DNA of 64,000 bases from Gammaproteobacteria bacterium (GTDB lineage: Bacteria > Pseudomonadota > Gammaproteobacteria > Steroidobacterales > Foliamicaceae): positions 5,046 through 69,045 of the forward strand of contig WTGP01000046.1 of assembly GCA_011523505.1 (NCBI GenBank), read 5' to 3'. Position 1 is the first letter of the stretch. Every line of letters starts with the position of its first letter. Below, in pieces: positions 43,180 through 63,720 of this stretch. The notes under the pieces were generated by a model. It saw only the letters and a program-made list of their open reading frames with translations, was not told the origin of the DNA and did not search any database. A program made the translations under genes and the position numbers.

Positions 43180-44265
43180 TCAACAACGAAATAGAGCCCG
43201 GGCGTTGGCGGAAACCAGTTTTTCCTGAGTTGAAGCGTCCAGATCGCCCCTCTCGGCCAGCGCCTGCCGGTACATGATCGTGTCCCCGATATCGCCGGGG
43301 TGGCCGTAGTCGCTCGAGGCCATCAGGCGATCCTCTCCGAGGTAACGCATGATGTGCGGCAGGTCCTCGTGAACCTCGCAGGTGATATAGAAATTGTGCT
43401 GCTCGAGTTTTTCCCGGACGAATTCCATCAGCTCCTCCGGGCTCAGGCGCACGTGCAGCGCGGTTTGTACCGCGGCGGCCACCCAGGTGCATCCCGATTC
43501 GAAAAAGCCGAAGCGGAGGTCCGGGAACTTGGCGGGAAGCTTGCTGTTCAGAAGCACCGAGAAGGCGAGGTAGTTGGGGCTATCGGAAATGAACCGATTG
43601 AATCCCGCGCCGTCGCGGCCCTGAATGGACTCGAAGGCCGGGCTGCCGTGACCGATATGGACGCAGATGGGCATGTCCAGGTCGGCCGCAGCCGAATAGA
43701 CCGGATCGAAATCCGAATGGTCCAGGAACTTGTCGCCTTCCAGTCCCCGGAACAGGACGCCGACGGCCCCCTGGTCCCTGAAGGCGCGCATGTCCTCCAC
43801 CGTTTGTCCGGGATTCTTGAGCGAGGGCACGAAAACCCATCGCAGGCGGCCGCCTGATTCGCTGCAGCGGTCGGCCATCCACCGGTTGTATGCTCGCGTG
43901 AGCGCCAATTCGGCGCGCGGACGGGTGCAGCGTATGTTGAGAAAAAGGCTGGAAAAAACCACCTGCCTGTCCACCTGCTGACGGTCCATGTCCCCGAGTC
44001 GGGCAGGGACATCCTCGAGCGTGATGGAGCTTGCCTTGAATTCGCCGTTGGAGTGCTCGGCGATGAACTCGGCATCGTGCTTTCCGTACAAGTGGTTGTC
44101 GATCACCCAGAATTCCCGCGTAAAACCCCCTGCAAAATGGGCGCTGATGGTCGCACCCGACCGCTTGCGCAGAATCGAAGGGCGGAATTCCTCATCGCCG
44201 GACGACAGGAGGTCCCAGACGGAGCTCGGCTCCACGACATGGGTATCGGCATCAATGATCTGCAT
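43180..44265 (-). CDS. Amidohydrolase-2 (PF04909-like; ACMSD/LigI/decarboxylase-hydrolase superfamily), paralogue A1
   Basis: The track ORF extends to 44541. I prefer the ATG at 44265 (MQIIDADTHVVEP) with SD agagga. It has a metal-binding DxH at the N-terminus, ICVHIGHG and SSDYGHPGD. Confidence 0.85.
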   Translation of the reverse strand: MQIIDADTHVVEPSSVWDLLSSGDEEFRPSILRKRSGATISAHFAGGFTREFWVIDNHLYGKHDAEFIAEHSNGEFKASSITLEDVPARLGDMDRQQVDRQVVFSSLFLNIRCTRPRAELALTRAYNRWMADRCSESGGRLRWVFVPSLKNPGQTVEDMRAFRDQGAVGVLFRGLEGDKFLDHSDFDPVYSAAADLDMPICVHIGHGSPAFESIQGRDGAGFNRFISDSPNYLAFSVLLNSKLPAKFPDLRFGFFESGCTWVAAAVQTALHVRLSPEELMEFVREKLEQHNFYITCEVHEDLPHIMRYLGEDRLMASSDYGHPGDIGDTIMYRQALAERGDLDASTQEKLVSANARALFRC

Positions 44266-44354
44266 GAGCGTTTCCTCTTTCCTGGCGGCGCGGAAAATCA
44301 GGTGTTTCCGGAGATCGTATAGCGCGTGCGGCGCTTGAACAAATCCGTTTTCGG

Positions 44355-44370
44355 AATCCAATATTGGAAC
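44355..44370. promoter_or_regulatory. Box 1 of ATTCCA-N4-TGGAAT palindrome family (AATCCAATATTGGAAC)
   Basis: Read directly; the core TCCAATATTGGA is a perfect 12-bp palindrome. It lies between divergent A1 (start 44265) and iclR (start 44427). Confidence 0.6.
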
Positions 44371-44426
44371 CCTGGCCGCTTCGGCTGCTACACTGTCGGC
44401 CGGAGTAGCGGCGTATTCGAGCTGAA

Positions 44427-45197
44427 ATGGACGATCGTTCCAAGTCAGTGGCACGGGTGATTGCCATTCTTGACCAGTTGAGCGTTTCACCCCGCCCGAT
44501 GTCGAATCTGGAGCTGGCGACCGAGCTGGACGTACCGGCATCCAGCATGCATCGGCTATTGCAAAAACTGACTGCGCTTGAATTCATCAATTGCGATGCG
44601 GATACGGCCCGCTATTCGGTTGCGCCACGGCTCAGCGAACTGGGCGTGCGCCTGGCCGAGGTCGGCGGATATTCCCAGCCACTGCGGGACCTGATGGGCG
44701 AAATCCGCGACCGGACCGGTTACACGGTAAGCGTCTGGGTGCCCAGCGGTGCGCGTGTGCGGATCTCCGCATTGCTGGTGGGGACGACGCGCGGAATTAC
44801 GTCCCGGCTGCCGGGAGAGCTCGCGGAACCCTTTTCGACACCAGGGCTCGCGATCGCGCCGCAATACAGCGACGACGCGATACGAAAACTCATCGCGATG
44901 GCCCGCCGTCACGGCGCTCCACTCGGGCGGGGTTTTACCCACCTCGCCCAGGTCCGAAGCGCGGTCAGGCGGGTGGCGAAACGGGGTTACCTGGTCGGCT
45001 ACAACATCCGTGGCGATGGATGGGCGATGGCTGCGTGGCCAATCCCCGTGACGGTTTCTCCGCCCAGGCCGGGTTGCCTTGCAGTGGGCGCGCTCGTTCC
45101 GGAAATGCGCCGGCGGCAGGTTGAGCTGGTGGACTTCGTTAATGGCTTGCGCGAGACCTATCTGAAAAAGCTGGGTTGGGCGAAGGCGGGACCGTAA
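44427..45197 (+). CDS. IclR-family transcriptional regulator
   Basis: SVARVIAILDQLS...MSNLELATELDVPASSMHRLLQKL is the wHTH. The C-terminus is an IclR effector domain, ~256 aa. Confidence 0.85.
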   Translation: MDDRSKSVARVIAILDQLSVSPRPMSNLELATELDVPASSMHRLLQKLTALEFINCDADTARYSVAPRLSELGVRLAEVGGYSQPLRDLMGEIRDRTGYTVSVWVPSGARVRISALLVGTTRGITSRLPGELAEPFSTPGLAIAPQYSDDAIRKLIAMARRHGAPLGRGFTHLAQVRSAVRRVAKRGYLVGYNIRGDGWAMAAWPIPVTVSPPRPGCLAVGALVPEMRRRQVELVDFVNGLRETYLKKLGWAKAGP

Positions 45198-46182
45198 CCC
45201 CGCCCGGGCCGAACGCGCTCTCGTCTGCTGAAATGACGGCGTCGAGGAACTGTCTGGCCAGCGCGGCAACTTCCTCGGGCGCCTCCAGGGGAGGGTAGTG
45301 ATTGACGTCATCGAGCTTGTCCACCCGCACAGTCGTGGAAGCGAGCCGGCCGGCAAGCAGTTCGAGAGTATCCGGCGGCAACACCGGATCCAGCATTCCC
45401 CAGATGAGTTGCGTGGGCGCCTTCACGGCGCCGAGAAAACGCCGTACCTCGCTGTCGTCGCGCATGATCGCCGTCATGCTGGTGAACTCGGAAGCACCCG
45501 GGCGGCGATTCAGGTCGTAGTACTCGGTGACCAGCGCATCGGTTACACGCTCCCGCCGTTCGAAATACGCGCTCAGAAAATCACGCCAGCAGGTTCGGGA
45601 AAACGGTCTTGCGTAGCGGACGCACGCGCCCATGGACCAACGCAGCTTCAGCGGCAGACGCGCCCGTGCTCCCTCGTTATCGACCGGCGCCGACGGCGGA
45701 ATGTTCGACAGAATGACGGCGCGAACACGCTCCGGATAGGTCGCCGCGAACCGATAGGCAATGATCCCCCCGCTGGACGTCCCGAGCAAGGCAACCGGGC
45801 CGACACCCAAGCGGTCGAGGAACTCGCTCAGGAAGGCTTCGGAAGTGAGAAAAAATTCCGGCGGGACGGGGCCCGACAATCCCGAGGGCGGTTGGTCATA
45901 ACGAATGGTCCGGTAGCCGTCGCCGAGCTCCCGCACCATATCGTCGAACATCCGCAGGCTGCCGAATGAGCCGTGCAGCAGCACGAGCACCGGGCCGCTG
46001 CCTTCGTCACGATAATTGACGTCCACGCCGGCAACCTCGACCTGCCGGGAACCCTCGCCGTACCGGGTCTGTACTTCGGCAAAGCCGATCGGCGGCGCAC
46101 TGCGCCGCGCGGCGAAGAACTGCGCGCTAACCAGGAGCGCAACGGCTGCTGCGCACGCCACGACTATCCAAAGGGCCCGCAC
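45139..46182 (-). CDS. Membrane-anchored/secreted alpha/beta hydrolase (H1)
   Basis: N-terminal hydrophobic segment. VNYRDEGSGPVLVLLHGS, nucleophile elbow LLGTSSGG, C-terminal NHYPPLEAP. The 3' tail overlaps the convergent iclR by 59 nt. Confidence 0.85.
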   Translation of the reverse strand: MRALWIVVACAAAVALLVSAQFFAARRSAPPIGFAEVQTRYGEGSRQVEVAGVDVNYRDEGSGPVLVLLHGSFGSLRMFDDMVRELGDGYRTIRYDQPPSGLSGPVPPEFFLTSEAFLSEFLDRLGVGPVALLGTSSGGIIAYRFAATYPERVRAVILSNIPPSAPVDNEGARARLPLKLRWSMGACVRYARPFSRTCWRDFLSAYFERRERVTDALVTEYYDLNRRPGASEFTSMTAIMRDDSEVRRFLGAVKAPTQLIWGMLDPVLPPDTLELLAGRLASTTVRVDKLDDVNHYPPLEAPEEVAALARQFLDAVISADESAFGPGGVTVPPSPNPAFSDRSRASH

Positions 46183-46206
46183 AGGCGGAAAGCCCCCGGT
46201 TATTCG

Positions 46207-48561
46207 TCAGAACCGGAAGGTACCGCGAACGCCGAATGCGCGCTTGAACGGAAGTCCAGACACGAAGGCACGCTGGAAATTGTCCAGGTCGGTGTTGATG
46301 GACACGTAGTAGTAAGTGTCGTCATCGAACAGGTTTGTGACATAGGCCTCCACGCGGTAGCTTTCCGCCTCCACGCCCAAGCGCAGGTGCACGAGGTTCC
46401 GATCGCCGGTTTCCAATACGTTCGCCTGGGTAGCGTACTTGGTGGACTCGTACAAATACTCGCCGCGCACAAACCCGTCCATTCGCCCCCCGAACACCGG
46501 CCGCGTGTATGTGGCCGTGGCTGAACCGGTAAATTCCGGCGTCCAGTGCGCCTGGTTGCCCAAGTGGTCCGTGTTGCTTGCCAGGGCACCATTGCTTACA
46601 CAGAGGTTGCAGATGCCTTCCACGAACTCGGTGCTGTTGCGGGCAAAGGCGCCGGTAAGCAGCCAATGCTCCGTAAGCTGGAAGCGCGCCTCCAGTTCCA
46701 TCCCGTTGATGTCGAGCTGGCCGACATTGGTGGTAATGCCGACAGGGTTCTCAAGTCCATCCTCGTCGTCAATAAAATAGCCTATCTGCTGCACCTGCTG
46801 GTCCGTGAGCTCCCCCCAATAGCCGACCAGCGAGGCCTGCAGCCGTCCTTCCAGCAGCGTGCCCTTCACGCCCAACTCATACTGATCGAGCGTTTCCGGT
46901 TCGACTGCAAGTTGTGCCCCGGAGTTCCGCTCAAGGCTCGCGGCTTCGGCGGCGGAGAGGGTGACGATGATGGAGTTGAAAGTGCCGGGCCGGAATCCGC
47001 GCGCGTAGTTGGCGAACAGCATGAGATCGTTGTCGGTCTGGTACTGGATCGTGACCCGGCCTCCCACGTCGTTGAATTCCGTCTCAAGGTCTCCGGACGG
47101 CACGCTGACCTCGTCGTTCTGATAGCGAACCTCGCCGCTTACCGTGAGTTTTTCGGTGAAATCGTAATAGACGCCTCCGAAGATGCCCCGCGTCGATACT
47201 TCCTGAATGGGACGGCAGGTAAACCCGCGGGGCGCAAAAAACACGCCCGCCACGCAGGAGGGCACGCCTTCGCTCGTGACGATGTTGGCGCCTGCCGTCC
47301 AGCGGAATGAACCCTCGCCCCCGGAAGACAGCCGTGCCTCATGCGAGGAATTCTCGGCGTAACGTTCCACCATAAACGTATCAGCGAGTGCGGAAGTGGG
47401 TAGTCTGGGAAGCGTATTCTCGTCGCTGACCATCATCGTTTTCGTCTCATTGAAGCCGCTGATCCAGTCAAGGATCATACCGCCGGGCAAATCCGCTGTA
47501 GCTGAGAAAGTCCCGCCCTGAACGCGCTTGGCCAGCCCCATCTTTTCGATGAACACGCCCTCGTCATCGATCTGCCTCGACGAGGAATCGGAATAAAGCG
47601 AGTAGGCCTCGATCACATCCCGAACGTAGTTGTAGTTGCTTGAGTAGCCGGGTGAAAACGCATCATTGTGGCCCACCATCGACTCTGCAACGCTCACATC
47701 GGGCGGTGTCCCGCAGCGATAAGTGGCGCTTCCGTTGCCGTTGGAATCGCAGTTCGCGAAACTGCTCGGGAAGCGGAACGAGGGCTGGGGCCCATCGTCG
47801 ATCTCGATGTCCTCGAGCCTGAGCTTGAGCTTCAGCGTTTCGGTGGGCGTAGCCAGGAACGTTGCGACCAGCGACCGGGTTTCCTCGTCGCCGATTTCGC
47901 GCTCGCCGGTACGGTTGTTCTTGAAATGTCCTCCCTTCTTGTTGTTCCTGGCGGTGAGGCGAACACTCAAACGGTCGGCGACAATCGGTCCTTCCACTGA
48001 CAGCGACAGGTCCGCGGTGCCGAACCTGTCGAGGTCCAGGCCCACCGAGCCGCCGAACTCCTCACCGGGATCCTTGGTGACCATGTTCACGGCGCCGGAC
48101 AGCGTGTTGCGTCCGAAGTAGGCCGTCTGGGGCCCCCTGAGGACTTCCACGCGAACGACATCCACAAAGCTGCCGACCTCTCCGCCGAACACGGGCGCAC
48201 CGTCCACGAAAAACAGCGCCGGCGCCGACGAACTCGAGACACCGAGGATGTTCAGCCCGCGGATGATGATGTTCGGCACGCCACGGTCCGCGCGGTTGGC
48301 GGAGGCGTTCTGATAGGTCAGTCCCGGAGTGAACAGCGACATGTCCACAAAGTTCTTGAGGTTGGATATGTCCAGGTCCTCCTCAGAAAACGCGGATACG
48401 GCAAACGGGATGTCCACCAGCGCCTCCTCGCGCTTTCGCGCGGTGACCACGATCTCTTCCAGCCCCACCTGGGCGTAGACCCTGGTTTCGGGCAAGAGCA
48501 AGCTCGCGGTTACGACTGTGCAAAGCGCGAATAGCCCAATGCGATTCAGTGTCCTGGACAT
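46207..48561 (-). CDS. TonB-dependent receptor (T3)
   Basis: I prefer the ATG at 48561 (MSRTLNRIGLFALCTVVTASLLLPETRVYAQ) with SD gaaggagg. Plug EEIVVTARKREEALVDIPFAVSAF, C-terminal ...GVRGTFRF. Confidence 0.9.
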   Translation of the reverse strand: MSRTLNRIGLFALCTVVTASLLLPETRVYAQVGLEEIVVTARKREEALVDIPFAVSAFSEEDLDISNLKNFVDMSLFTPGLTYQNASANRADRGVPNIIIRGLNILGVSSSSAPALFFVDGAPVFGGEVGSFVDVVRVEVLRGPQTAYFGRNTLSGAVNMVTKDPGEEFGGSVGLDLDRFGTADLSLSVEGPIVADRLSVRLTARNNKKGGHFKNNRTGEREIGDEETRSLVATFLATPTETLKLKLRLEDIEIDDGPQPSFRFPSSFANCDSNGNGSATYRCGTPPDVSVAESMVGHNDAFSPGYSSNYNYVRDVIEAYSLYSDSSSRQIDDEGVFIEKMGLAKRVQGGTFSATADLPGGMILDWISGFNETKTMMVSDENTLPRLPTSALADTFMVERYAENSSHEARLSSGGEGSFRWTAGANIVTSEGVPSCVAGVFFAPRGFTCRPIQEVSTRGIFGGVYYDFTEKLTVSGEVRYQNDEVSVPSGDLETEFNDVGGRVTIQYQTDNDLMLFANYARGFRPGTFNSIIVTLSAAEAASLERNSGAQLAVEPETLDQYELGVKGTLLEGRLQASLVGYWGELTDQQVQQIGYFIDDEDGLENPVGITTNVGQLDINGMELEARFQLTEHWLLTGAFARNSTEFVEGICNLCVSNGALASNTDHLGNQAHWTPEFTGSATATYTRPVFGGRMDGFVRGEYLYESTKYATQANVLETGDRNLVHLRLGVEAESYRVEAYVTNLFDDDTYYYVSINTDLDNFQRAFVSGLPFKRAFGVRGTFRF

Positions 48562-48653
48562 GGCGGCCTCCTTCGAATCTCCCATCCCGCGTTCTCCAGT
48601 ATTGCACGATTTCCACGAAATGACGCTGGATTTGGGATCAATGTTTGCCAAAA

Positions 48654-48669
48654 ATTCCATTTTTGGAAT
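48654..48669. promoter_or_regulatory. Box 2 of the palindrome family (ATTCCATTTTTGGAAT; 7-bp arms AATTCCA/TGGAATT at 48653-48670)
   Basis: Read directly. It lies in the 159-bp gap between A2 (stop 48721) and T3 (start 48561), 93 nt upstream of the T3 ATG. Confidence 0.65.
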
Positions 48670-48720
48670 TACCGGCCGAATCCCAATACGCCCTAAGGCG
48701 ACTGCCTCTTCGCCCATACC

Positions 48721-49803
48721 CTATGAGAGACCGAACAATGCCTGTGCGTTGTCGCTCAGTATCCGTCTCTTCTGTTCGTCGGTGACATCCCTCCGGCCGA
48801 GGAATTTTCTCTGCACGAAAATCGATTCGTCGACGTCTCCCGGATGGCCGTAATCGCTTCCAAGGACGAGATTGGCGTCTCCGGCGTACTGAAGGATCAA
48901 CGGCAGTTCTTCGTGTTCCTCGCAGGTGACATAGAGGTTGCGCTCCCGCATCACCGACTGCGTGAATTCCTTTCGGTCGCGATGGTCGCGGACCTTGTGC
49001 GCCTGCACCACGAGGTAGGTCAGCCATGACGAACCGATCTCGAAGAAACCGAACCTGAGTTTGGGAAACACGGTCGATATCTCACTCGTCGCGATTGCGG
49101 TGAACGACATGAGCGTCGGCACGGACATGTGAAACCGGGAAGGGCGGTCCTCGGTGTTGCGCCGGATCTGCCGGAACGCGGGGCTGGCATTGCCGATGTG
49201 AACGCAGATCGGAAGGTCGAGATCTTCGGCAACGCGATAGAGGGGATAAAAATTTGGGTGGTCCACGGGCCGGTTGCCTTCGAGTCCGCGCAGATGTATG
49301 CCGACCGCACCGCGGTCCTTGCACCAGGCGATCTCCTTGAGCGTCTCGTCCATGTTCTTCAGCGAAGGCTGCATCACCCAGCGCAGCCGCCCGTTGCCGC
49401 CGCTGCAGCGATCGGCGAGAAAGCGGTTATAGGCCCGCGAGAGCGCCAGTTCCACGGCGGGAGATTCGGGCGCGAGCGCCAGGAACAGGCTCGGGAAGAT
49501 GACGTGCATGTCGACGCCCTGCAGGTCCATGGCCTTGAGACGCTCATCGGGATCGGTCATGCCGAGGGCCCCGGGCTTGACCTCTCCGCCGGAGAATTCC
49601 TCGATCATCTCCAGGTTGGTGCGGGCGTACAACTGCCCGTCGATGGCCCACACCGAGGTCATGGGCGCCTGTATTGGGGGCACCATGATCCCCTCGTCCA
49701 GTTCGATCGCCTGCGGGCGATGAACCCGCTCCTTCTCGGTCATGTGCTCCCAGATCGCGGCGGTCTCGATCAGGTGGGTATCGGCGTCGATAATTTTCGG
49801 CAC
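48721..49803 (-). CDS. Amidohydrolase-2 paralogue A2
   Basis: Clear paralogue of A1 (KIIDADTHLIE, ICVHIGNAS, GSDYGHPGD). The track start is a TTG at 49836. I prefer the GTG at 49803 (V-PKIIDADTH), 4 nt after the H2 stop. Confidence 0.85.
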   Translation of the reverse strand: MPKIIDADTHLIETAAIWEHMTEKERVHRPQAIELDEGIMVPPIQAPMTSVWAIDGQLYARTNLEMIEEFSGGEVKPGALGMTDPDERLKAMDLQGVDMHVIFPSLFLALAPESPAVELALSRAYNRFLADRCSGGNGRLRWVMQPSLKNMDETLKEIAWCKDRGAVGIHLRGLEGNRPVDHPNFYPLYRVAEDLDLPICVHIGNASPAFRQIRRNTEDRPSRFHMSVPTLMSFTAIATSEISTVFPKLRFGFFEIGSSWLTYLVVQAHKVRDHRDRKEFTQSVMRERNLYVTCEEHEELPLILQYAGDANLVLGSDYGHPGDVDESIFVQRKFLGRRDVTDEQKRRILSDNAQALFGLS

Positions 49804-49807
49804 GGCA

Positions 49808-50770
49808 TTATTCCAGTGAATCGAGAAACTTCTCAAGATCGGCGGTAAACAGATCCGGATCCTCCCACATGGGAAAGTGCCCGAACTGAGGATAGCTGAT
49901 GACCGTCAGCGGCGCTTGACTGAATCTTTCGATAGTAGCCTCAAGGGACTGATATATAACGGTATCCTGTTCACACCATTGCAAGAGCACCGGTACCGTT
50001 ACGTTCTCCGCGAGCGCCCCGACATCCATGGTGCGGAACAATTCGACATTGGATGCGATGTATTCTCTCTGGCGCTGCGCGGCGCCCGGCAGATTGTTGG
50101 CGTCGTAGATCATGTCGATCATCTCGTCGGGAGGCGCGAAACCCGGCGGCGTGGTGTCCTCCAGGACCAGGCGCCACCAGTACTTCGAGCGGTAATCCGG
50201 CAGGAACCGGTTGTGAAACCAGCCCAGGGCCCGGATGCGCCAATCGACCTTGCGGGTCTGGCTCGGCCGCTCGAGCGGCAGGACCGACATCGCCATGGCC
50301 CGCACGCGGCCGGGGTAGCGCGCGTAATAGTCGAGCGCCACGTTGACTCCATTCGAGGTTGCGAGGATCGTAAAGGGCTCCAGGTCCAGGTGCTCCACCA
50401 GCCCGGCCACGATGTCGGCCGCCCGCGCCGTCGTCAGGATCCCCCTGGGGTCGGGCTCCGTGAAGCCGTAGGGAGGCCAGTCCAGCCGGACGACCCGAAA
50501 GCGGCCCTTCAGCCGGTCCGCTATCGGGCTCCATTCGTGCATATTCAGAATGCTGCCGTGGAGCATCAGGACGACCGGCCCGCGGCCTTCGATTCGCACA
50601 TGGACATTGACGCCATCGATATTCACAAATGTTGACGGAGGCGCCGCCCAGCGCGCCTTGACGGTCTCGTAATCGGTGTCCCACCAGCCGATCCGCATGG
50701 ATCCCACGAGCGCGACCAACACGGCTGCGACCACGACAACAACGGAGATTGTTCGCTTGAACAGGCTCAT
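49808..50770 (-). CDS. Membrane-anchored alpha/beta hydrolase (H2)
   Basis: N-terminal TM ISVVVVVAAVLVALV. GRGPVVLMLHGS, variant elbow ILATSNG (AxSxG), C-terminal GHFPMWEDP. ATGA overlap with the upstream M24 gene. Confidence 0.85.
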   Translation of the reverse strand: MSLFKRTISVVVVVAAVLVALVGSMRIGWWDTDYETVKARWAAPPSTFVNIDGVNVHVRIEGRGPVVLMLHGSILNMHEWSPIADRLKGRFRVVRLDWPPYGFTEPDPRGILTTARAADIVAGLVEHLDLEPFTILATSNGVNVALDYYARYPGRVRAMAMSVLPLERPSQTRKVDWRIRALGWFHNRFLPDYRSKYWWRLVLEDTTPPGFAPPDEMIDMIYDANNLPGAAQRQREYIASNVELFRTMDVGALAENVTVPVLLQWCEQDTVIYQSLEATIERFSQAPLTVISYPQFGHFPMWEDPDLFTADLEKFLDSLE

Positions 50771-52011
50771 ACCGTGATCACCGGTTCGCCGATGTCATGC
50801 AGCGGCTCCGCTCCCTCTGCCGTAATCAGCATCAGGTCCTCGATGTGCGCGGAACCGCCGACGCCCGTGTCCATGACCGGGCAATCGACGCTGAGGATCA
50901 TGTTTTCACGCAATGTCAGGTCCAGCTTTCCGAAGAAGCCCCCGGCATCGCGGCCGGGCTCGTCCGTGTGCATCAGCCCTACGCTGTGCGGGCCGATTCC
51001 GACGGCGACGTTGAAACCCCCCTTGCGTACCGCATCCTGCCCGAGGGCGGCAATGTCGCTGTAGCGCATTCCCGGACGCAGTCGTTCACGGATTGACTGC
51101 CATGCATGCGAGACGGCCTGCGCCGCCCTCCGCGCAGCGGGTACCGGCTCGCCGACGAACACGGTGCGCGCGTAGTCGCCGTGGTAGTGGTGAGAATGGC
51201 TGACTCCGTCGATGAAGAATGCCTGTCCGTCCGAGATCACGCCGTCCGACAATTCGGAGGATACCCGGTCGACGTTCAGAAAGAGGGCGCGATTGCCGAG
51301 CCGGGCTGCCTCGACCTCGAACAAATGCCGCAGTTCGGAATGGCTCGCCCCCGCGCGCACAGCCTGGCCGACCGCGTTGACGGCGCCGACATTGGCGATC
51401 GCGGCGCGCCGCATCAACCGGACTTCCAGCGGAGACTTGATCAGTCGAATCCACCTGAGGATGTTATCGCCCGGCACGATCTCGCCAGGATGGCCGTGGC
51501 GCTCGCAGACCGCAGCCGTGACGACGTGATCGCAGGCGATACGGCCCTGCCAGAGTCCCATCTCCTTCATCGCACGTACGAGGGCCGCTCCGGCGTCGGC
51601 GCTTGTGCCGCGCGCTGCCGTAGCCGCATCGAGCGCCTGGCGCCGCCGCCGTTCGACAGGCGACAGCGGCGCCTGTTTGCGGTCCGGGAATTCGGCCCCC
51701 AGCATGTCCGGCGGCAGCAGAGCTTCACTTTCGCTGTCGTCGTCGGCCTCCTGATACAGGTAGACCTGAACGTCGCTCGCGAAACCACCGTCCACGTAGG
51801 TGTAATAGTAGATAAAACGGGAGGCCACGAGGCCCGGTTTCTGGCGCGCGTCCCGCGATAACAGGGCAAAAGTGGTCGGCGGTTGCCCCATGCGCGTCTT
51901 GCCCAGTTGGGGCCAGTACCCCAGCGCGTGGTACACGTTCACCGGTTCCCCGAGCACGAGGCCCTGGAGGTCGAATTCGTCCATGACCTCGAAGGCGCGT
52001 TCCAGATTCAT
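50767..52011 (-). CDS. M24-family hydrolase (creatinase / Xaa-Pro dipeptidase / ectoine-hydrolase-like)
   Basis: The track ORF extends to 52401. I prefer the ATG at 52011 (MNLERAFEVMDEFDLQGLVLGEP, a creatinase_N-like start). C-terminal pita-bread motifs: FIDGVSHSHHYHGDYARTV, GPHSVGLMHTDEP, ILSVDCPV, SAHIEDLMLIT. The start is uncertain. Confidence 0.7.
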   Translation of the reverse strand: MNLERAFEVMDEFDLQGLVLGEPVNVYHALGYWPQLGKTRMGQPPTTFALLSRDARQKPGLVASRFIYYYTYVDGGFASDVQVYLYQEADDDSESEALLPPDMLGAEFPDRKQAPLSPVERRRRQALDAATAARGTSADAGAALVRAMKEMGLWQGRIACDHVVTAAVCERHGHPGEIVPGDNILRWIRLIKSPLEVRLMRRAAIANVGAVNAVGQAVRAGASHSELRHLFEVEAARLGNRALFLNVDRVSSELSDGVISDGQAFFIDGVSHSHHYHGDYARTVFVGEPVPAARRAAQAVSHAWQSIRERLRPGMRYSDIAALGQDAVRKGGFNVAVGIGPHSVGLMHTDEPGRDAGGFFGKLDLTLRENMILSVDCPVMDTGVGGSAHIEDLMLITAEGAEPLHDIGEPVITV

Positions 52012-52155
52012 AGGCCCCTGCTCGCGGAGCAGGCGAGTGAGCTCCGCGTCCTTGCTGCGGAGATCCTTCCGTAAGGCTGCCTCTGATCCAGTCACTGTTT
52101 CCCGCCTGCCGCACGCCCCTGGCATATTATGACGACGCTCCGGAGCGGAGACCAC

Positions 52156-53022
52156 GTGAACGACATTGAACGCCAGTTTGTCGCACTGCGCGAGGGACAG
52201 TTGCATCTGCGTCGCCTTGAGGGGCAGGCCGAGGGCGCAAATCCGGCCGTGCCGGCCGTTTTGCTGCTTCACCCTTCTCCGGCATCGTCGTGGTTCATGC
52301 AGGGCCTGATGGTCGAACTGCGTAAGGCCGGCTGCAACGCAACGCTTATCGCACCCGACACGCTCGGTAATGGCGACTCGGCGCCACCCGGCATCGATCA
52401 CCCCGACATCGCCTACTTCGCCGACAGCATGTGCCGCATGATCGACGAACTTGCGCTCGAACGCGTGGACCTGTACGGCTCACACACCGGTGCGCGGATC
52501 GCCTGTGAGTTCGCCGCGGCCTGCCCGGATCGCGTTCGACGGGTCGTGCTCGACGGCATCATCGAGTATGACGACGACATGCGCAACGCCATCATCGAGA
52601 ACTATGCGCCGCGCGTCGAGCCGGATGAGTTCGGACGGCATTTCGTCTGGGCGTTCAACTTCGTTCGCGACCAGGCGCTGCATTTTCCGTGGTTCATGCG
52701 CGACCCGGAGCACCGCCTCGGTGGGCCCGTGCCTCCCCCGGCGGTCCTCCACCGGGCAGCGCTCGACGTGCTGAAGGCGCTCGACACCTACGCGGACCCG
52801 TACATCGCGGCCTTCGAATACCGGGCCTATGAGCGCCTGCCGCAGATCGAGGCGCCGGTGCTGCTCCTGAAGCCCGACAGCGAATTGCCGGTCCTGCAAG
52901 CCGCTGTCGCTAAGGCGGCGAGTCTGTTGCGCGATGGGCGTATCGCTACGGTACCCGGCGGTGACACGTCCAAAGCCGAGGCTATCGCTGACTTTCTGGC
53001 TGCCGTGCTGCGGAACGAATGA
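52156..53022 (+). CDS. Cytoplasmic alpha/beta-fold protein (H6) with an atypical nucleophile elbow
   Basis: AVLLLHPSPASS..., elbow LYGSHTGARIA, no signal peptide. I prefer the GTG at 52156 (SD ggagcggaga); the track ATG at 52129 is an alternative. Confidence 0.7.
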   Translation: MNDIERQFVALREGQLHLRRLEGQAEGANPAVPAVLLLHPSPASSWFMQGLMVELRKAGCNATLIAPDTLGNGDSAPPGIDHPDIAYFADSMCRMIDELALERVDLYGSHTGARIACEFAAACPDRVRRVVLDGIIEYDDDMRNAIIENYAPRVEPDEFGRHFVWAFNFVRDQALHFPWFMRDPEHRLGGPVPPPAVLHRAALDVLKALDTYADPYIAAFEYRAYERLPQIEAPVLLLKPDSELPVLQAAVAKAASLLRDGRIATVPGGDTSKAEAIADFLAAVLRNE

Positions 53023-53027
53023 GTCAG

Positions 53028-53105
53028 TAATACAAGTACAGGACCGCAGCCCTCGTCACGATAGTTGACGATCAGGCCGGCCGCTTCGAGGCGTGGGCCT
53101 GGCAC
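53028..53105 (-). pseudogene. Relic (~22 codons) of an H1-type alpha/beta-hydrolase gene downstream of TBDR T4
   Basis: The minus-strand frame reads ...RLEAAGLIVNYRDEGCGPVLVLL, against H1 VEVAGVDVNYRDEGSGPVLVLLHGS. The DNA is also visibly similar (gtcaactatcgtgacgagggctgcggtcct vs gtcaattatcgtgacgaaggcagcggcccg). It has no TM/N-terminus and no catalytic part. The position mirrors T3 followed by H1. Confidence 0.5.
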
Positions 53106-53146
53106 CGTCCTCTACTGCAATGCGTCAAAGCAGTCCGATCGCAATC

Positions 53147-55537
53147 TCAGAAGTTGTACACCGCACGCACGCCGAAGGTCCGCTTTCTTGCCAGCGAATA
53201 GCGGATTTCATTGGATCTCGCCACGGTGATCAGATCGTTGCCGATCACGGCGCTCGGCGGGCTGTCTTCCTCGAACAGGTTGGTGCCGAACGCTTCCACC
53301 GTCAGGGCGTCGGAACGAAGGCCCAGCCTCAGGTTGAAGATGTCCTGCGGCGCCACCCAGGCTTCATTGGTGTAATCGACGAAATACTTGCCCAGGTGGG
53401 CGTAATCGACCCGGGCGAACCAGTTGTAGTTGTCCGTGAGCGCGTCTTCGTAATCGGCGGACAGTGTCCACGTCCACTTCGAAGCCGACGGCAACCGGCT
53501 TCCGTCGCAGTTGTTGTCGCCGCGCACGTTCACGCCGTCGCCGCACACGAAATTCTTCACTTCGGAATCCGCCAGACCCAGTGAACCGGACAGCGTCAGG
53601 TTCTCGGTCGGGGCGGCATCGAACTCGAACTCGAAGCCCTGCAGGTCCGCTTCGCCCGTGTTGACGAACACGGACGCCAGGTTGAGCGTCCCGTCCGGAT
53701 TGGTAAACGGAATGGTGATCTGATTCTGGCCATTGCGGTAGGGATCGAAATACACGGCCAGGCGCGTTTGCAGACGGCCGCCCAGCCAGGTCGACTTCAG
53801 GCCTGCCTCGAAGTTGTCCAGCCGTTCCTCCTCGTAGGCAACCGAGGCCCCGAATTGCGCAAACTGGTCGAGGACTACCTGCGGGGAGCCCTGGAGGATT
53901 GCGTTGAAGCCGCCCGGGCGGTAACCGCGAGAGAACAGGACATAGACCATCGAACCCTCCGCGTACTGGTAATCCAGCGATACGCGCGGAGCGAAGCTCG
54001 TGAACTCGGCTTCCAGTGGCTCGCCTCCCGGGGGCTCCGGCGGGTTGCCCGTCGAGTTGATCAACAGTTGCCGCAGCAGTTCGTCCCGCTGGTAGCGGGC
54101 GTCGACGCTCAGCGTCAGCTTCTCGTTGATGTCGTACTGGAGTCCGCCGAATATGGCCGGTGTGGTCGTTTCCGCCTTGGTGATACCGGCTGCAAACAGC
54201 GAGCCGAACACCGAAAGGCCATAAACCGATCCGCCCGGAGAGTAGGAGTCCAGGTAACTGCCGCCCAAAGTCCAGCGCAGCCGCCGGTCCTGCGGCGAGC
54301 TCACGCGCAATTCCTGGCTCCAGTCGCGGAACCGGCTCTGGACGGCAAGCTGCCACCGATTGAACGGCGGCGCGCCGGGAATGACGAAGGACAGCGGGTT
54401 GGGCACGTTGCGCCGGTCCCGGAAGTTCAGATCGATGATCGTCATGTCCTTGTCGGTGTGATAGGCGGTCAGCGCGCTGAACACGTACCCCGACTCGGTG
54501 TCGTAGTCGATGCGCAACGATGCGTTTTCGGCCTCGCGGCCCAGACCCGGCTTGGGCCGGAAACTGGGGTCGAAAATGGTGGCCTGATCCACCGCGTCCA
54601 CCAGGACGGCCCTCGCCTGCTCGTCCAGTGTGTAGTGGCCGGAAATATGACTGGCGGGAAGATCACCCGTATCCGGCAATTCGCCGCAGTAATAACCATG
54701 CATCCGCCCGCCCAGATCGCAATTGAAATCGCCGGTTGAGCCCTTCAAGGCAGCCTGCGCCGGGGGGCCGTCATCGTGTTCCATGTACTGGAAGAACGCC
54801 TTCGCGGACAATCTTTCGTTTGGCCGGAACTGTGCCTGCACAACGAAGGATTCCGTCAGTTCGCCGCCCAGTTCAACGTCGGGATTGGCAAAATTCTTGT
54901 ACTGGCCGCCCTTCTCATCGCGACTGGCGCTGACCCGCACGGCCAGGCCATCCATGATCGGTCCTTCCAGGGCGACCTGTACCAGGGAGGAATCAAAGCT
55001 GGCGGCCGACGCGGTAAGCCGGCCCTGGAACTCTTCGTCGTTAAGGTTCCGCGATACGTAGTTGATGGCGCCGGACAACACCGAACGGCCGAAGTAGGCC
55101 GATTGCGGGCCCTTCAATACCTCCACCCGTTCCATGTCCACCATGGCCGGAGCCTGACCTCCCAGCAGGGGCGAACCGTCAAGAAACACCAGGCCGCCGG
55201 CCTGCTGCTCCCGGTTCAGGGTGCCCAGGTAGAGGCCGCGAAAAACCAGGGAGCTGGCGGAGCGGTCATTGCGCCCGGATCCGCCGCCGACCTGCTTGAC
55301 GTAGTGGAAACCCGGAGTAAAGGACGCGATTTCGCCCATTTCCGTGAGGTTCATTTTTTCCAGCGTTGCCGCCGACATGGCGGAAATCGCCAACGGGGCC
55401 TCCATCAGGTTTTCCTCGACCTTGCGGGCGGTAACCACGATTTCCTCAAGCGCGGGTTCCTGCGCCAAAGATGTTTGCGCAAACGTTGCGAAGACAATGG
55501 CGCCGGCTACGGCGGCCAGCCTGATTGACATTTTCAT
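53147..55537 (-). CDS. TonB-dependent receptor (T4)
   Basis: I prefer the ATG at 55537 (MKMSIRLAAVAGAIVFATFAQTSLAQ) with SD agaggga. Plug EEIVVTARKVEENLMEAPLAISAM, C-terminal ...GVRAVYNF. It is a paralogue of T3. Confidence 0.9.
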   Translation of the reverse strand: MKMSIRLAAVAGAIVFATFAQTSLAQEPALEEIVVTARKVEENLMEAPLAISAMSAATLEKMNLTEMGEIASFTPGFHYVKQVGGGSGRNDRSASSLVFRGLYLGTLNREQQAGGLVFLDGSPLLGGQAPAMVDMERVEVLKGPQSAYFGRSVLSGAINYVSRNLNDEEFQGRLTASAASFDSSLVQVALEGPIMDGLAVRVSASRDEKGGQYKNFANPDVELGGELTESFVVQAQFRPNERLSAKAFFQYMEHDDGPPAQAALKGSTGDFNCDLGGRMHGYYCGELPDTGDLPASHISGHYTLDEQARAVLVDAVDQATIFDPSFRPKPGLGREAENASLRIDYDTESGYVFSALTAYHTDKDMTIIDLNFRDRRNVPNPLSFVIPGAPPFNRWQLAVQSRFRDWSQELRVSSPQDRRLRWTLGGSYLDSYSPGGSVYGLSVFGSLFAAGITKAETTTPAIFGGLQYDINEKLTLSVDARYQRDELLRQLLINSTGNPPEPPGGEPLEAEFTSFAPRVSLDYQYAEGSMVYVLFSRGYRPGGFNAILQGSPQVVLDQFAQFGASVAYEEERLDNFEAGLKSTWLGGRLQTRLAVYFDPYRNGQNQITIPFTNPDGTLNLASVFVNTGEADLQGFEFEFDAAPTENLTLSGSLGLADSEVKNFVCGDGVNVRGDNNCDGSRLPSASKWTWTLSADYEDALTDNYNWFARVDYAHLGKYFVDYTNEAWVAPQDIFNLRLGLRSDALTVEAFGTNLFEEDSPPSAVIGNDLITVARSNEIRYSLARKRTFGVRAVYNF

Positions 55538-55600
55538 CAATGTGTTCCCTCTTCGTGCTTCGATATCCGGCAGTCCGTTGCCGCAGGGTAGGGAGAGGCG

Positions 55601-55614
55601 CTCAAGATCTTGAG
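55601..55614. promoter_or_regulatory. Perfect 14-bp palindrome CTCAAGATCTTGAG in the T4 leader
   Basis: Read directly, 64 nt upstream of the T4 start. Function unknown. Confidence 0.3.
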
Positions 55615-55691
55615 ACCACCTCACACGCGCCGGTCAATATAGACTGTTTTGAGCGTCCTTCGCGGCTGAATGGACGCAAAGTAGGGCAAGT

Positions 55692-55707
55692 ATTCCAATT
55701 TTGGAAT
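55692..55707. promoter_or_regulatory. Box 3 of the palindrome family (ATTCCAATTTTGGAAT)
   Basis: Read directly. It lies in the gap between PhyH and T4, touching the PhyH stop codon, 155 nt upstream of the T4 ATG. Confidence 0.65.
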
Positions 55708-56537
55708 CATCCGGCTGATCCGACATCGGTCCGCCGCCAGATCACGGGGAAGAATTTCCCCGACGGAGGCTCGCCTTCCGGCAGGGCGTCCACCCCGGGA
55801 ATGGAGGCCTTGTAGGGGGCCGGATACCAGCGCACGTCGTCGCCGAAGACCCGCACCGCCAATCCCGTGCGCGGTCTGGCGCTCGAATGGTTCCCCTGTG
55901 AGAAATGAGGTGTGGACGGGTGGAAAACGACCGCGTCGCCCGGTTCCATGTCGAACGAGACGAACCGGAACGGAAAGTCCGGATTGTTCCGTTCCTTCTC
56001 GAAGTCGGGACAGAGCCCGTCGGCCTGATCGGGCGCGAACCCGAAATGCAGGTCGTTTTCCACGCAATGCCGATGAAACCCGGCCACATATTCCACGCGT
56101 CCGTTCTCACGGTCCACCGGGGTCAGCGCGACCCAGATGTTGGGGGCCATCTCGCCCGTGACCGGCCATGCGGTTTCGTCGCAGTGCCAGACCATCACCT
56201 TGGTGGAACCGGGCGGCTTGTGGAACAGGTGATCGTGATAAGCGCGTATGGTGTCCGCTCCGATGACACGACCAACAACCTCCCCGACGGGCGAATTCAG
56301 GACGAAATCCCGGAACACGCCCGGCTGGCGCCACATGAAGCACACGGACGCCATCGATGCGCCGTGCGAGGGTCCGGGAATACCGTAGTTTTCCGGATCC
56401 TTCAACAGCCGGTCCACTTCCTGCCCTAACCGCTCGATCCATTGCCGATCGAACACCTGTCGAAGGTGAACCACGCCATCCCGCCGGTAGGTGTTCCGGT
56501 GTTCCGCCGTAATCGGGTTGAGGGTAGGCTTATTCAT
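55707..56537 (-). CDS. Phytanoyl-CoA dioxygenase (PhyH)-family Fe(II)/2-oxoglutarate oxygenase
   Basis: 276 aa. YRRDGVVHLRQVF, facial triad WHCDE plus distal VVFHPSTPH, and the basic residue RTGLAVR. Confidence 0.8.
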   Translation of the reverse strand: MNKPTLNPITAEHRNTYRRDGVVHLRQVFDRQWIERLGQEVDRLLKDPENYGIPGPSHGASMASVCFMWRQPGVFRDFVLNSPVGEVVGRVIGADTIRAYHDHLFHKPPGSTKVMVWHCDETAWPVTGEMAPNIWVALTPVDRENGRVEYVAGFHRHCVENDLHFGFAPDQADGLCPDFEKERNNPDFPFRFVSFDMEPGDAVVFHPSTPHFSQGNHSSARPRTGLAVRVFGDDVRWYPAPYKASIPGVDALPEGEPPSGKFFPVIWRRTDVGSAG

Positions 56538-57934
56538 TGACTCTCGTCTTTCGCGATAGAGCGTAACCTCTCAAGCTCATGCTCGCTCAAGTTGTAGCGG
56601 GAGATCGCGGCGATGCTGATCGCCTGCAGCACAAGCGGCAGGACCGCTATGCACAGATAGAGTCCGAGCAGCGCGCTTTCGGTCTGCTCGATCCGCTGGC
56701 CTTCCGTCGCTTCAACGTAGCCCATGGCGCCAAGGAATACGCCCAGGAAGGCGACTCCAAGAGCGCCGGAAATTTTCTCCACGAGAACATAGAGCCCCGT
56801 GAATGCTCCCTCGCGCCGCAGTCCTGTTTTCAGGTAGTCGAATTCCAGTGCGTCGGGCAGCATCGCCTGGGTCAGCAGGAAGGTTCCGCCGCCCGCAACG
56901 CCGATCAGGACCGATCTCAGGATGATCAGGCTGACAGGCTCGCCGGGCCCGGCAAACCACCAGGAAAAATGGGCTACGCCATAAAGCGCCGCTGCGATCA
57001 TGTAGCCGTTCCGTTTCCCCATGCGGCGCGCGACGAAAAGCCAGGCGGGCTGGGAAAGGATAAGCGCCACGCTCAGAACGCCCAGGTACAAGCCGAGCAC
57101 GTCGTCGGTAACCTCAAGGACGTGTTTCGTAAAGTAGGCGGTGGTGGAAACGGCGATCGCCAGCACCAAGAAGTACACCAGCTTGGACACCATGAGCCAA
57201 AGGAAGGGGATGTTCCCGAGAGCCGACTTCAGTTGCTCCTTCAGGGGCGGCTGTTGCAGCCGCTGAACGGTCTGGGGGGCGTGGCGAAGCGACCATACGC
57301 ACACCACCACCGCCACGGCTGCGATGCCCGCCAGTACCCAGGCCATCCGGGCGTGACCTGCCCGGGTTGCGCCCCACCAGGCCAGCAGGGCAGGGCCCAG
57401 GCTCAAGCCGATCAACGAGCCGAACGAGGAAAACACGACCCGGAACGACATGAGCTGGGTGCGCTCGTGATAGCTGGGCGTCAATTCCACGGCCATTGCT
57501 ATATAGGGGATATTGAACATCGTGTACGAAGTAGCGAACAACAGCAGAAAGGCCGACAGGTAGATCAGCAGGGGCGTCCCGCTTGTATCGGGAGTTGTGT
57601 AGAGGGCCGCAACGGAGGCGGCGCACAACAGGCCGCCTGTCGCCAACCACGGCAGCCGCCGGCCCCACCGCGTGGAAATACGGTCCGAGAATGCGCCCAT
57701 CAGCGGGTCGCTGATGGCATCCCAGACCTTCGCGCCGGCGAAGATGAACGCCGCAGTGGCCGCGGCAACGCCCAACGAATCGGTCATGAAACGCAGCAAA
57801 AGGACGTTCGACGACAGGTTCAGGATGGTGATGGGCATCGAACCGAGTCCCCATCCGAGCCGTGTTTTCAGCGGGAGCGTAGCTTTGCCCGGTCCCGCTG
57901 CGCCCCCGTCGTCGCCTGTCCTGATTCCCGGCAT
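56534..57934 (-). CDS. GPH-family MFS symporter
   Basis: DAISDPLMGAFSDRISTRWGRRLPWL is the GPH signature. I prefer the ATG at 57934, 17 nt after the cupin stop. ATGA overlap with PhyH. Confidence 0.85.
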   Translation of the reverse strand: MPGIRTGDDGGAAGPGKATLPLKTRLGWGLGSMPITILNLSSNVLLLRFMTDSLGVAAATAAFIFAGAKVWDAISDPLMGAFSDRISTRWGRRLPWLATGGLLCAASVAALYTTPDTSGTPLLIYLSAFLLLFATSYTMFNIPYIAMAVELTPSYHERTQLMSFRVVFSSFGSLIGLSLGPALLAWWGATRAGHARMAWVLAGIAAVAVVVCVWSLRHAPQTVQRLQQPPLKEQLKSALGNIPFLWLMVSKLVYFLVLAIAVSTTAYFTKHVLEVTDDVLGLYLGVLSVALILSQPAWLFVARRMGKRNGYMIAAALYGVAHFSWWFAGPGEPVSLIILRSVLIGVAGGGTFLLTQAMLPDALEFDYLKTGLRREGAFTGLYVLVEKISGALGVAFLGVFLGAMGYVEATEGQRIEQTESALLGLYLCIAVLPLVLQAISIAAISRYNLSEHELERLRSIAKDESQ

Positions 57935-57951
57935 TCCCGTCCGCGCCACAA

Positions 57952-58476
57952 TCAACCGGGCAGCAGCCGATCCAGGATGGATTCGCCCGGCGCCGGACAC
58001 AGGGACTCGTCAAGTTGCACCGACACTCCGAACTGGCCCTCGGGACCCGCGCCCGACCTGTGGCCGCTGCCGACACAATCCTCGGCGAAAAGAACGTCTC
58101 CGTGACCGAACTCGTGACGGCTTCCGTCCCGCAGCTCGACCACGAGAGTTCCGAATATCGGTATCAGGATGTTGGGCTGGTTGGCCACGTGCCAGTCATA
58201 CATGAAACCGGGCGCGATGGATCCCACGGTCACACGGTCAGCGGGATGCCGGATCAGCAGATGAGGAGGCTGCGGACCTGGACCGGTCACCGGCACTTCC
58301 CGTATTTCAGCTACTCCGCCGGCGTTGGCAAACAGGTTGAAGTATCGCTTCACCCACGGCGGCCCGTCTGCGGCCAGTGCCGGTCCCGCACCACCGCCAA
58401 CGCCGGCGAGCGCCAGCGCCGCGCTCGTGCCCGCAGTCGAGACGAAGGCCCTTCTTGTCGAACTCGATTCGCTCAT
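57952..58476 (-). CDS. Tat-exported small cupin-domain protein
   Basis: I prefer the ATG at 58476 with SD ggagaggga. MSESSSTRRAFVSTAGTSAALALAG is a twin-arginine signal. C-terminal GDVLFAEDCVGSGHRS is a cupin-type motif. Confidence 0.7.
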   Translation of the reverse strand: MSESSSTRRAFVSTAGTSAALALAGVGGGAGPALAADGPPWVKRYFNLFANAGGVAEIREVPVTGPGPQPPHLLIRHPADRVTVGSIAPGFMYDWHVANQPNILIPIFGTLVVELRDGSRHEFGHGDVLFAEDCVGSGHRSGAGPEGQFGVSVQLDESLCPAPGESILDRLLPG

Positions 58477-58556
58477 GACTCCCTCTCCGGCATCTACGCG
58501 TCGGATTCTCCCGCCTATGATGTCGCTTGTCCAATCCATCGCAAGAAGCAAATCGC

Positions 58557-63633: not shown

Positions 63634-63720
63634 TGCGAAGACTGTCTGAATCGACAGATGGATTCTATGCCACAATGGAAATTCAGCGATGGCTCGATCT
63701 TGCCTGGCTCCAACGACACG

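Follow-up and report, generated by a model that had tools for sequence, protein, structure and literature searches.

Palindromic boxes as candidate operators of an IclR-family regulator near TonB-dependent receptor genes in a gammaproteobacterium

The DNA analysed here, referred to below as the window, is a stretch of 64,000 nt from a gammaproteobacterium of the family Foliamicaceae (assembly GCA_011523505.1, contig WTGP01000046.1, positions 5,046 to 69,045). It contains three copies of a 16-bp palindrome close to a gene for an IclR-family regulator (iclR), an Amidohydro_2 gene (A1) and two genes for TonB-dependent receptors (T3 and T4). The palindromes (boxes 1-3) are probably operators of the adjacent regulator (a probability of roughly 0.8), whose direct regulon would comprise iclR, A1, T3 together with the alpha/beta-hydrolase gene that follows it (abH), and T4. 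A dimer of winged helix-turn-helix domains would recognise the 16-bp sequence ATTCCA-N4-TGGAAT (family consensus ATTCCAATATTGGAAT). That the protein binds the boxes, whether it activates or represses, and that an effector is involved are points that we infer from sequence. The boxes and the genes of the proposed regulon are as follows.

Box 1, 44355..44370, no strand: AATCCAATATTGGAAC, in the divergent intergenic region between A1 and iclR; 21.9 bits with a matrix from other genomes
Box 2, 48654..48669, no strand: ATTCCATTTTTGGAAT, in the gap between A2 (a second Amidohydro_2 gene) and T3, 92 nt 5′ of T3; 21.9 bits
Box 3, 55692..55707, no strand: ATTCCAATTTTGGAAT, 154 nt 5′ of T4; 25.8 bits
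Weak second site, 44342..44357, no strand: AATCCGTTTTCGGAAT, AATCCG-N4-CGGAAT, overlapping box 1 by 3 nt; 10.1 bits
A1, 43180..44265, minus strand: Amidohydro_2 (Pfam), divergent from iclR; proposed regulon member
iclR, 44427..45197, plus strand: IclR-family regulator of 256 aa (Pfam HTH_IclR); proposed to bind the boxes
abH, 45139..46182, minus strand: alpha/beta hydrolase (Pfam), 24 nt 3′ of T3
T3, 46207..48561, minus strand: TonB-dependent receptor (Pfam Plug and TonB barrel), 3′ of box 2
T4, 53147..55537, minus strand: TonB-dependent receptor (Pfam), starting at 55537 or at an in-frame ATG at 55531, 3′ of box 3

The palindromes in the window

The sequences and coordinates of the three boxes, first given in a preliminary description of this DNA, were confirmed exactly. 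The exact pattern ATTCCA-N4-TGGAAT had two matches in the 64-kb window, where 0.00 were expected; with up to two mismatches there were seven matches against 1.28 expected, and none of 100 shuffles reached seven. The core TCCA-N4-TGGA occurred three times in the 64 kb, exactly at boxes 1-3. A scoring matrix trained on 11 boxes, all from other genomes, was then applied to the window. The three boxes took ranks 1-3 (25.8, 21.9 and 21.9 bits), and the runner-up, located in coding DNA, scored 11.6 bits. The three sites are far beyond chance.

Non-coding DNA makes up about 4% of the window, and boxes 1-3 all fall within it, as the preliminary description had claimed; this holds in full for boxes 1 and 2, while box 3 ends, at 55707, on the third position of the stop codon of the neighbouring PhyH gene. 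The number of bases from box to start codon was 89 for A1, 92 for T3, 154 for T4 and 56 for iclR, in agreement with the earlier estimates of some 90-155 nt for the first three and some 57 nt for iclR. Measured from the box centres, the start codons of A1, T3 and T4 lie at 98-163 nt and that of iclR at 64.5 nt. No box was detected by the matrix scan at the other receptors of the window (∼17985-21125 and 33160-36078), and the statement that the motif is missing from the other intergenic regions of the window was also supported, the outside-genome matrix giving at most 11.6 bits elsewhere.

The three boxes of the window have nothing in common beyond the box itself. The T3 and T4 receptors are 31% identical, and are therefore not recent duplicates; A1 and A2 are 42% identical. 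The boxes are thus not relics of a recent duplication. Two operons of the island, one containing A2, an alpha/beta-hydrolase gene and an M24 peptidase gene, and the other a small gene, an MFS transporter gene and PhyH, have no box of their own, and the direct regulon would therefore be limited to iclR, A1, T3(-abH) and T4 rather than cover the whole island.

Conservation of the box with the regulator gene

The regulator family is small (36 homologues, 43-100% identity). The comparison set consisted of 30 loci carrying iclR orthologues of 43-91% identity, from uncultured marine, sponge and freshwater Gammaproteobacteria. A profile-guided scan took in 23 loci of uncultured Gammaproteobacteria, including Steroidobacteraceae, Nevskiaceae and one Candidatus Foliamicus chromosome; added to these were close relatives from marine metagenomes (L143-L150) and three T4 loci (L151-L153). 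A canonical box (consensus ATTCCAATATTGGAAT) adjoined iclR, or the operon containing it, in 24 of the 30 loci. The perfect sequence was found 37-62 nt 5′ of iclR in nine loci whose IclR proteins are 48-54% identical, and one-mismatch forms were present in L001 and L023; perfect or near-perfect copies 5′ of iclR were kept across orthologues of just 48-57% identity. In most loci the distance between box and iclR was 37-62 nt, and the 16-bp spacing was the same in the window as in all the orthologous loci. From locus to locus, the DNA around the box and the adjacent genes differed.

The box also recurred before the same kinds of target gene, where its scores in other loci ranged from 14 to 32 bits (13.2 for one MFS site). 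The orthologous position of box 1 was kept in L001, L143-L149, L003, L004 and L150. A box before an A1-type amidohydrolase gene was present in the close relatives of the window and in L003, L004, L005, L019 and L150, and in these loci the order A1-box-iclR, or A1-box-operon containing iclR, was kept as well. The T3 orthologues of L001 and L143-L149 were preceded by a box, as were the T4 orthologues of L151, where it is conserved, and of L153, where its flanks are unrelated. In nine loci (L007, L008, L010-L012, L014, L017, L022 and L023) a box accompanied a receptor gene divergent from iclR; box and receptor were found 3′ of A1 in L003, and in other positions in L004 and L150. Boxes before MFS_2 transporter genes were seen in L003-L006, L019 and L150. 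The proposal of the preliminary description that the IclR gene, A1, T3 and T4 form one candidate regulon is thus supported by sequence comparison: the palindrome lies at iclR in 24 of 30 loci and recurs before the same targets. Conservation in orthologous islands, which had been suggested there as a check, was found: the boxes are conserved with the regulator across genomes.

No strong second site accompanied the boxes. Tandem operators spaced at 18-22 nt, usual in many IclR regulons, were not found near any box, and the sole tandem partner detected near any of them was the weak site at 44342-44357. Its centre is 13 nt from that of box 1, so that the two would lie on different faces of the helix. 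Comparable weak sites of 13-17 bits were present in L143 (309-324), L144 (9916-9931) and L145, and were not seen in L001, L146, L148 or L149. Conserved among the nearest relatives of the window alone, the weak site may serve the A1 promoter as an auxiliary site of low affinity. A scan of 185k genomes for the exact 16-mer was uninformative for a genome-wide regulon: among the matches listed, most were in AT-rich genomes with no IclR gene nearby, and a second site was not seen in regulator-carrying genomes.

The gene order of the island (45139-56537) is highly plastic among the relatives with IclR proteins 75-91% identical (L001, L143-L149), and the module formed by box, T3 and hydrolase gene was intact in all compared relatives despite the reshuffling. 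A resemblance of another kind was found within one metagenome-assembled genome, in which the T4 orthologue (L153, 2920-3012) and the T3 orthologue (L001, 7885-7950) are near-identical in leader sequence and initial codons (shared pieces AATACTG, CGCGATTGAGAATCGCGAGGAGGAA and ATGTTCAGGACAA), while the T3 and T4 proteins are only ∼31% identical in the window. This likeness points to gene conversion or to an exchange of the stretch that holds promoter and leader.

The regulator and its recognition helix

The product of 44427-45197 matched PF09339 (HTH_IclR) with an E value of 1.3e-10 over residues 7-54, and the same domain was present in 36 of 36 homologues. Over the whole length, the protein gave a weak match to the NCBIfam model BhcR (41 bits, the cut-off being 350), and its best PDB sequence match, also weak, was BlcR (3mq0; E 4e-8). 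Its AlphaFold2 (AF2) model matched full-length IclR structures (1mkm, 3mq0, 8ejv, 5y6i and 2xrn; E values from 1e-12 to 1e-9 over ∼260 columns), and the structural matches include T. maritima IclR, BlcR, PcaR, HmgR and TtgV. The model shows the two-domain IclR fold over the full length (∼250 aa). The protein is a divergent yet genuine member of the IclR family. By sequence, it represents an undescribed orthologous group inside a well-known family, with a candidate operator of a known type whose spacing is off by one base.

The predicted recognition helix, PASSMHRLLQK, is almost invariant among the orthologues, and the loci with a canonical box share the form P-x-SSMHRLL-x-K, with SSMY (L014) and SSTH (L017) as minor variants. 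The box accompanied a helix of the SSMH type in 23 of 24 loci, the exception being L002. Six loci of Steroidobacteraceae encode instead an ASMY helix (P-x-ASMYRLL-x-K); none of the six had a canonical box, and at most they showed degenerate versions of it, among them ATTCCATTGTTGAGTT and ACTTCAATATTGAAAT. In this clade, a search for a variant motif did not yield any alternative palindrome that recurred. With loci counted without phylogenetic correction, Fisher's exact test of helix type against box gave 1.2e-5. The box is missing or degenerate where the helix is altered, as expected if the regulator reads it.

Predicted promoters and the placement of the box

For 13 receptor promoters, each hexamer between the box and the start codon was scored for its match to TATAAT, a TG upstream of it adding to the score. 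In 12 of the 13, the best −10-like element was 60-62 nt away from the centre of the box; in the remaining one the distance was 72 nt. The elements were TGCAATACT, TATATT, TGGTAGTTT, TGGTAGCTT, TGCTAACGT and TGCTAATTT; their distances to the ATG showed a roughly 4-fold spread, and no conserved −35 element was visible at these promoters. The 13 promoters represent at least five lineages of unrelated sequence, and the naive chance of five best matches falling in one 3-nt window is ∼2e-8. If these elements are the −10 hexamers, the box would be centred near −70 (once near −81). Such a geometry resembles that of class I activation, in which the activator site is centred near −61.5, −71.5 or −82.5, on one helical face, ahead of a promoter with a poor −35. 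The candidate elements in the window are these.

Putative extended −10 of T3, 48598..48606, minus strand: TGCAATACT, 61 nt from the centre of box 2; near-invariant in 7 relatives
Putative −10 of T4, 55636..55641, minus strand: TATATT, 61 nt from the centre of box 3; the best in the 154-nt gap, and kept in L151
Putative extended −10 of iclR, 44386..44394, plus strand: TGCTACACT, 29 nt from the centre of box 1; conserved in an 8-relative alignment

The T3 candidate was the top −10-like element between box and ATG, and in L148 it carries a single substitution (TGCAATTCT). The gene preceding the T3 gap in seven relatives was A2, PhyH, T4 or an M24 peptidase gene; the box was retained in all, and the sole conserved blocks of the gap were the box, the T3 element in either of these forms and the ribosome-binding site. 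Separate promoters for the receptors inside what would look like continuous operons had been suggested in the preliminary description, and the persistence of box and TGCAATACT behind such different genes supports their presence at T3. The iclR candidate scored highest in the window and in L001, L143, L144 and L148, and second in L149; in the close relatives having the box, the element, as TGCTACACT or as one of its variants TGATAGACT and GAGTACACT, again lies at 29 nt, centre to centre. The box would cover the −35 region of iclR, which suggests autorepression. The autoregulation proposed earlier is likewise consistent with the position of the box, 37-62 nt 5′ of iclR in most loci and 29 nt from this conserved −10-like element.

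Taken together with the box, these elements point to a dual mode of action. At the receptor promoters, where the box would lie near −70 and an extended −10 is present without a −35, the regulator would act from upstream as a class-I-like activator, probably once a small-molecule effector is bound by its C-terminal domain. At its own promoter, where the box (centre near −39) would cover the −35, it would repress. We consider this combination of receptor activator and own-gene repressor slightly better supported than not; the activator claim is held at no more than that strength because the transcription starts are predictions. A broader proposal has a little under an even chance of being right, namely that these proteins form an undescribed IclR subfamily with a 16-bp ‘WTT-10-AAW’ operator and, in contrast to most IclR regulons catalogued so far, activate receptor and MFS promoters from a strict position near −70 while each represses its own gene. 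The candidate subfamily spans Steroidobacteraceae, Nevskiaceae, Candidatus Foliamicus-like bacteria and sponge- or seawater-associated Gammaproteobacteria.

Weighing of the evidence

Several findings weigh against operators of the adjacent regulator that work in the way proposed. A scan for standard sigma-70 promoters returned no full promoter in any of the three box gaps. The promoter elements were therefore deduced from conservation; the −10 elements are consensus-based guesses and the transcription starts are predictions. At the MFS promoters the box lies 42 or 53 nt from similar elements, not 61, these distances being roughly in helical phase, and the A1 promoter showed no consistent geometry and could not be defined. 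The published operator class closest to the box, ‘WTT-11-AAW’, is one base longer than the 16-bp site. In the regulator, no Pfam IclR C-terminal domain was matched at E ≤ 0.001, and the AF2 model is of moderate confidence (predicted local distance difference test score, pLDDT, 71), with residues 108-132 low. Further, iclR is present and the box absent in L002, and the T4 orthologues of L148, L149 and L152 have no box, the T4 box being lineage-specific; because of these losses, membership of the regulon appears to be fluid. Finally, many catabolic IclR regulators are repressors (PMC13273656).

The boxless locus L002 (Candidatus Foliamicus sp. chromosome OZ244880.1, 9856-10006) encodes an IclR protein 79% identical to that of the window, and the best site there scored 6.1 bits. 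No receptor gene was present in this 20-kb locus. The TGCTACACT −10-like element of iclR was retained despite the loss of the box, making L002 a natural operator-less relative.

The strongest alternative keeps the same regulator and the same operators, and makes the protein an effector-released repressor at all four promoters, acting by direct block, oligomerisation or looping. It has precedents in E. coli IclR, BlcR, TtgV and PheR, and the IclR regulators of catabolic clusters typically repress (PMC13273656). The closest relative of solved structure by sequence is itself a repressor, BlcR (3mq0); the box overlaps the predicted −35 of iclR, some relatives have a weak second site right next to box 1, and the receptor promoters may lie nearer to the boxes than predicted. 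However, the distance from box to −10 is fixed at 60-62 nt across unrelated receptor promoters, and a site near −70 cannot occlude the polymerase. Neither a second operator over the predicted core promoters nor tandem sites at 18-22 nt were found, and the predicted promoters have no −35, as is typical of activator-dependent promoters. Repression at every promoter is thus a possible but rather unlikely reading.

Several regulator families recognise palindromes with TTCC/GGAA arms, and the boxes might therefore be genuine and yet be read by a DNA-binding protein encoded elsewhere, their linkage to iclR being coincidental. This is improbable: iclR has the box beside it in 24 of 30 loci whose other genes differ greatly, often as the sole shared non-coding element; it is gone in the clade with an altered IclR helix; and its half-site agrees with the published IclR-family consensus. 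Nor is a second regulator gene consistently present, none being found repeatedly near the box among the compared loci.

Least probable is that the palindromes are non-regulatory (chance AT-rich inverted repeats, weak terminators after A2 and PhyH, or a dispersed repeat), for although boxes 2 and 3 directly follow same-strand genes and the RNA of box 2 extends to a hairpin of −13.8 kcal/mol (z = −2.5), a terminator scan of the three gaps gave no match over any box (its single match lies inside T4, 55501-55514), the hairpins of boxes 1 and 3 were no better than those of shuffled sequences, the extended stem of box 2 was not conserved, box 1 and the boxes of 10 distant loci separate genes that diverge, a setting in which a terminator would be senseless, the flanks are unrelated, hence no mobile repeat, no Rfam family was matched and the window statistics exclude chance. 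The terminator or hairpin reading was rejected, no terminator overlapping the boxes and the hairpins being weak or unconserved. A riboswitch or other known RNA in the receptor leaders was also rejected (no Rfam match). Operators of the adjacent IclR-family protein remain the preferred reading of the boxes.

Other genes of the island

The gene labels of the preliminary description were confirmed by Pfam. The remaining genes referred to above are the following.

A2, 48721..49836, minus strand: Amidohydro_2 (Pfam)
PhyH, 55707..56537, minus strand: PhyH (Pfam)
MFS_2 transporter, 56534..58000, minus strand: MFS_2 (Pfam)

The alpha/beta-hydrolase gene abH is probably co-transcribed with T3, given the gap of 24 nt between them; the pair was retained in L001, L143, L144 and L146-L149. 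As called, the 3′ ends of the convergent genes iclR (plus strand) and abH (minus strand) overlap by 59 nt (45139-45197), and a convergent overlap of ∼40-47 nt was also called in L143, L144 and L146. At least seven paralogous alpha/beta-hydrolase genes are present in ∼19 kb (45139-63798; gene positions 45139, 49808, 52129, 58527, 61709, 62674 and others), an unusual density around receptor genes. The best matches of these hydrolases were models of 3-oxoadipate enol-lactonase, HsaD and esterases, all weak; for A1, the hydrolases, the M24 protein and PhyH, the NCBIfam and PDB matches were all far under the family cut-offs.

An additional, unannotated minus-strand gene of ∼160 aa (58000-58476, start at 58476) heads the operon of small gene, MFS gene and PhyH. 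The N-terminus of its product resembles a twin-arginine (Tat) signal peptide (SRRAFVSTAGTSAALALAG), and homologues in L146 (165 aa) and L148 (176 aa) had no Pfam match. A possible fourth operator at 58149-58164 (TTCCGAATATCGGTAT) was rejected, as it lies inside this minus-strand gene with a Tat-like signal peptide. In L151, the corresponding position reads as a perfect TTCCGATATTCGGAA.

Across genomes, the regulator is accompanied by the A1 amidohydrolase, two types of alpha/beta hydrolase, MFS_2 transporters, receptors and a protein of ∼700 aa. In the window the latter has 737 aa (59551-61764, minus strand) and a cytochrome c motif at its C-terminus; its first ∼650 residues had no match in Pfam, NCBIfam or PDB sequences. 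Homologues number more than 950, some of them fused to PF06439 or ThuA domains. They were found in L004, L005, L013, L015, L016, L018, L019 and L021, and in Steroidobacteraceae the gene lies directly 3′ of the iclR orthologue. By its AF2 model (pLDDT 79), the 737-aa protein is similar to quinohemoprotein alcohol dehydrogenases, which combine a beta-propeller with cytochrome c (E 1e-18 and ∼15% identity against 1kv9). The protein thus appears to belong to an uncharacterised dehydrogenase-like family. The gene set as a whole suggests uptake of one compound by the receptors, its periplasmic oxidation, import through the MFS transporter and hydrolysis in the cytoplasm.

Significance and comparison with known systems

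As to kind, the predicted regulon is local and standard for so well-known a family, a solid annotation that brings no surprise. It would provide a concrete regulator-operator pair for uncultured marine and freshwater Gammaproteobacteria, which lack genetics, and it names the likeliest responders to one substrate, namely both receptors of the outer membrane together with an amidohydrolase and a hydrolase. Placed in a reporter or biosensor in a heterologous host, the operator could help to identify the effector, which in turn could reveal the nutrient imported by the receptors. Under the broader subfamily proposal, outer-membrane uptake would be linked to a conserved set of enzymes, made up of an Amidohydro_2 enzyme, alpha/beta hydrolases and a dehydrogenase of the quinohemoprotein-like type. 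A placement near −70, if true, would be a clear example of an upstream activator of the IclR type acting on TonB-dependent uptake.

IclR operators have been divided into group 1 (GKTYCRYW3-4RYGRAMC) and group 2 (TGRAACA...TGTTYCA), group 1 including a subgroup WTTYCRYW3RYGRAAW, ‘WTT-11-AAW’ (Suvorova & Gelfand 2021, PMC8222616). The boxes resemble this subgroup in the half-site WTTYCR (here ATTCCA), in the A/T-rich centre and in being located before the gene of the regulator itself and before neighbouring operons. They differ from it in having 10 bases between the outer triplets, rather than 11 or 12, and thus 16 bp in place of 17. Most operator centres in that work are located 20-80 nt upstream, compared with 98-163 nt here (64.5 nt for iclR). 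The exact box strings were not found in those of its supplementary tables that were searched, and TonB is absent from its main text; nor was the motif string, by itself or combined with IclR, found in the literature searched.

Compared by operator alone, GenR of Corynebacterium glutamicum is also similar, its operator being ATTCC-N7(5)-GGAAT (Table 1 of PMC8222616). Boxes 2 and 3 have the ATTCC...GGAAT arms, as does the family consensus, but the spacer of GenR is N7 or N5, whereas it is N6 in every strong site here; the matches to TTCC-N7-GGAA in the compared loci were GC-rich and in coding DNA. GenR is actinobacterial and controls genes for 3-hydroxybenzoate and gentisate, not TonB-dependent receptors. 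According to the title of a paper as cited (Chao & Zhou 2013), it activates catabolic and transport operons and also represses transcription, a duality like that proposed here.

The operators of E. coli IclR (TGGAAATNATTTCCA) and AllR (KTTGGAAWAWTWTTCCAAC) contain the same pentamers, TGGAA and TTCCA, around an A/T-rich centre. Their half-sites are, however, reversed: TGGAA...TTCCA (group 2) rather than the TTCCA...TGGAA of the boxes. In Acinetobacter baylyi, the IclR-type activators PcaU and PobR each use one palindrome in a shared region to activate structural genes and repress the regulator gene. As with iclR and A1, the regulator gene is divergent from its target and one palindromic site lies between them. 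Their half-sites are, in contrast, of the GTTCGA/GTCCGA type with a third half-site added, and their targets are enzymes for protocatechuate and 4-hydroxybenzoate, not outer-membrane receptors.

PheR of Sphingobium sp. SHPJ-2 is likewise an IclR-family protein tied to TonB-dependent receptors; its loss alters the expression of tonB-exbBD, several TonB-dependent receptors and a catabolic operon (PMC13273656). It differs in being a repressor with a GCAACG core determinant. Its effect on receptors is transcriptomic, with no receptor operators reported, whereas in the window the receptor genes bear the candidate operator themselves.

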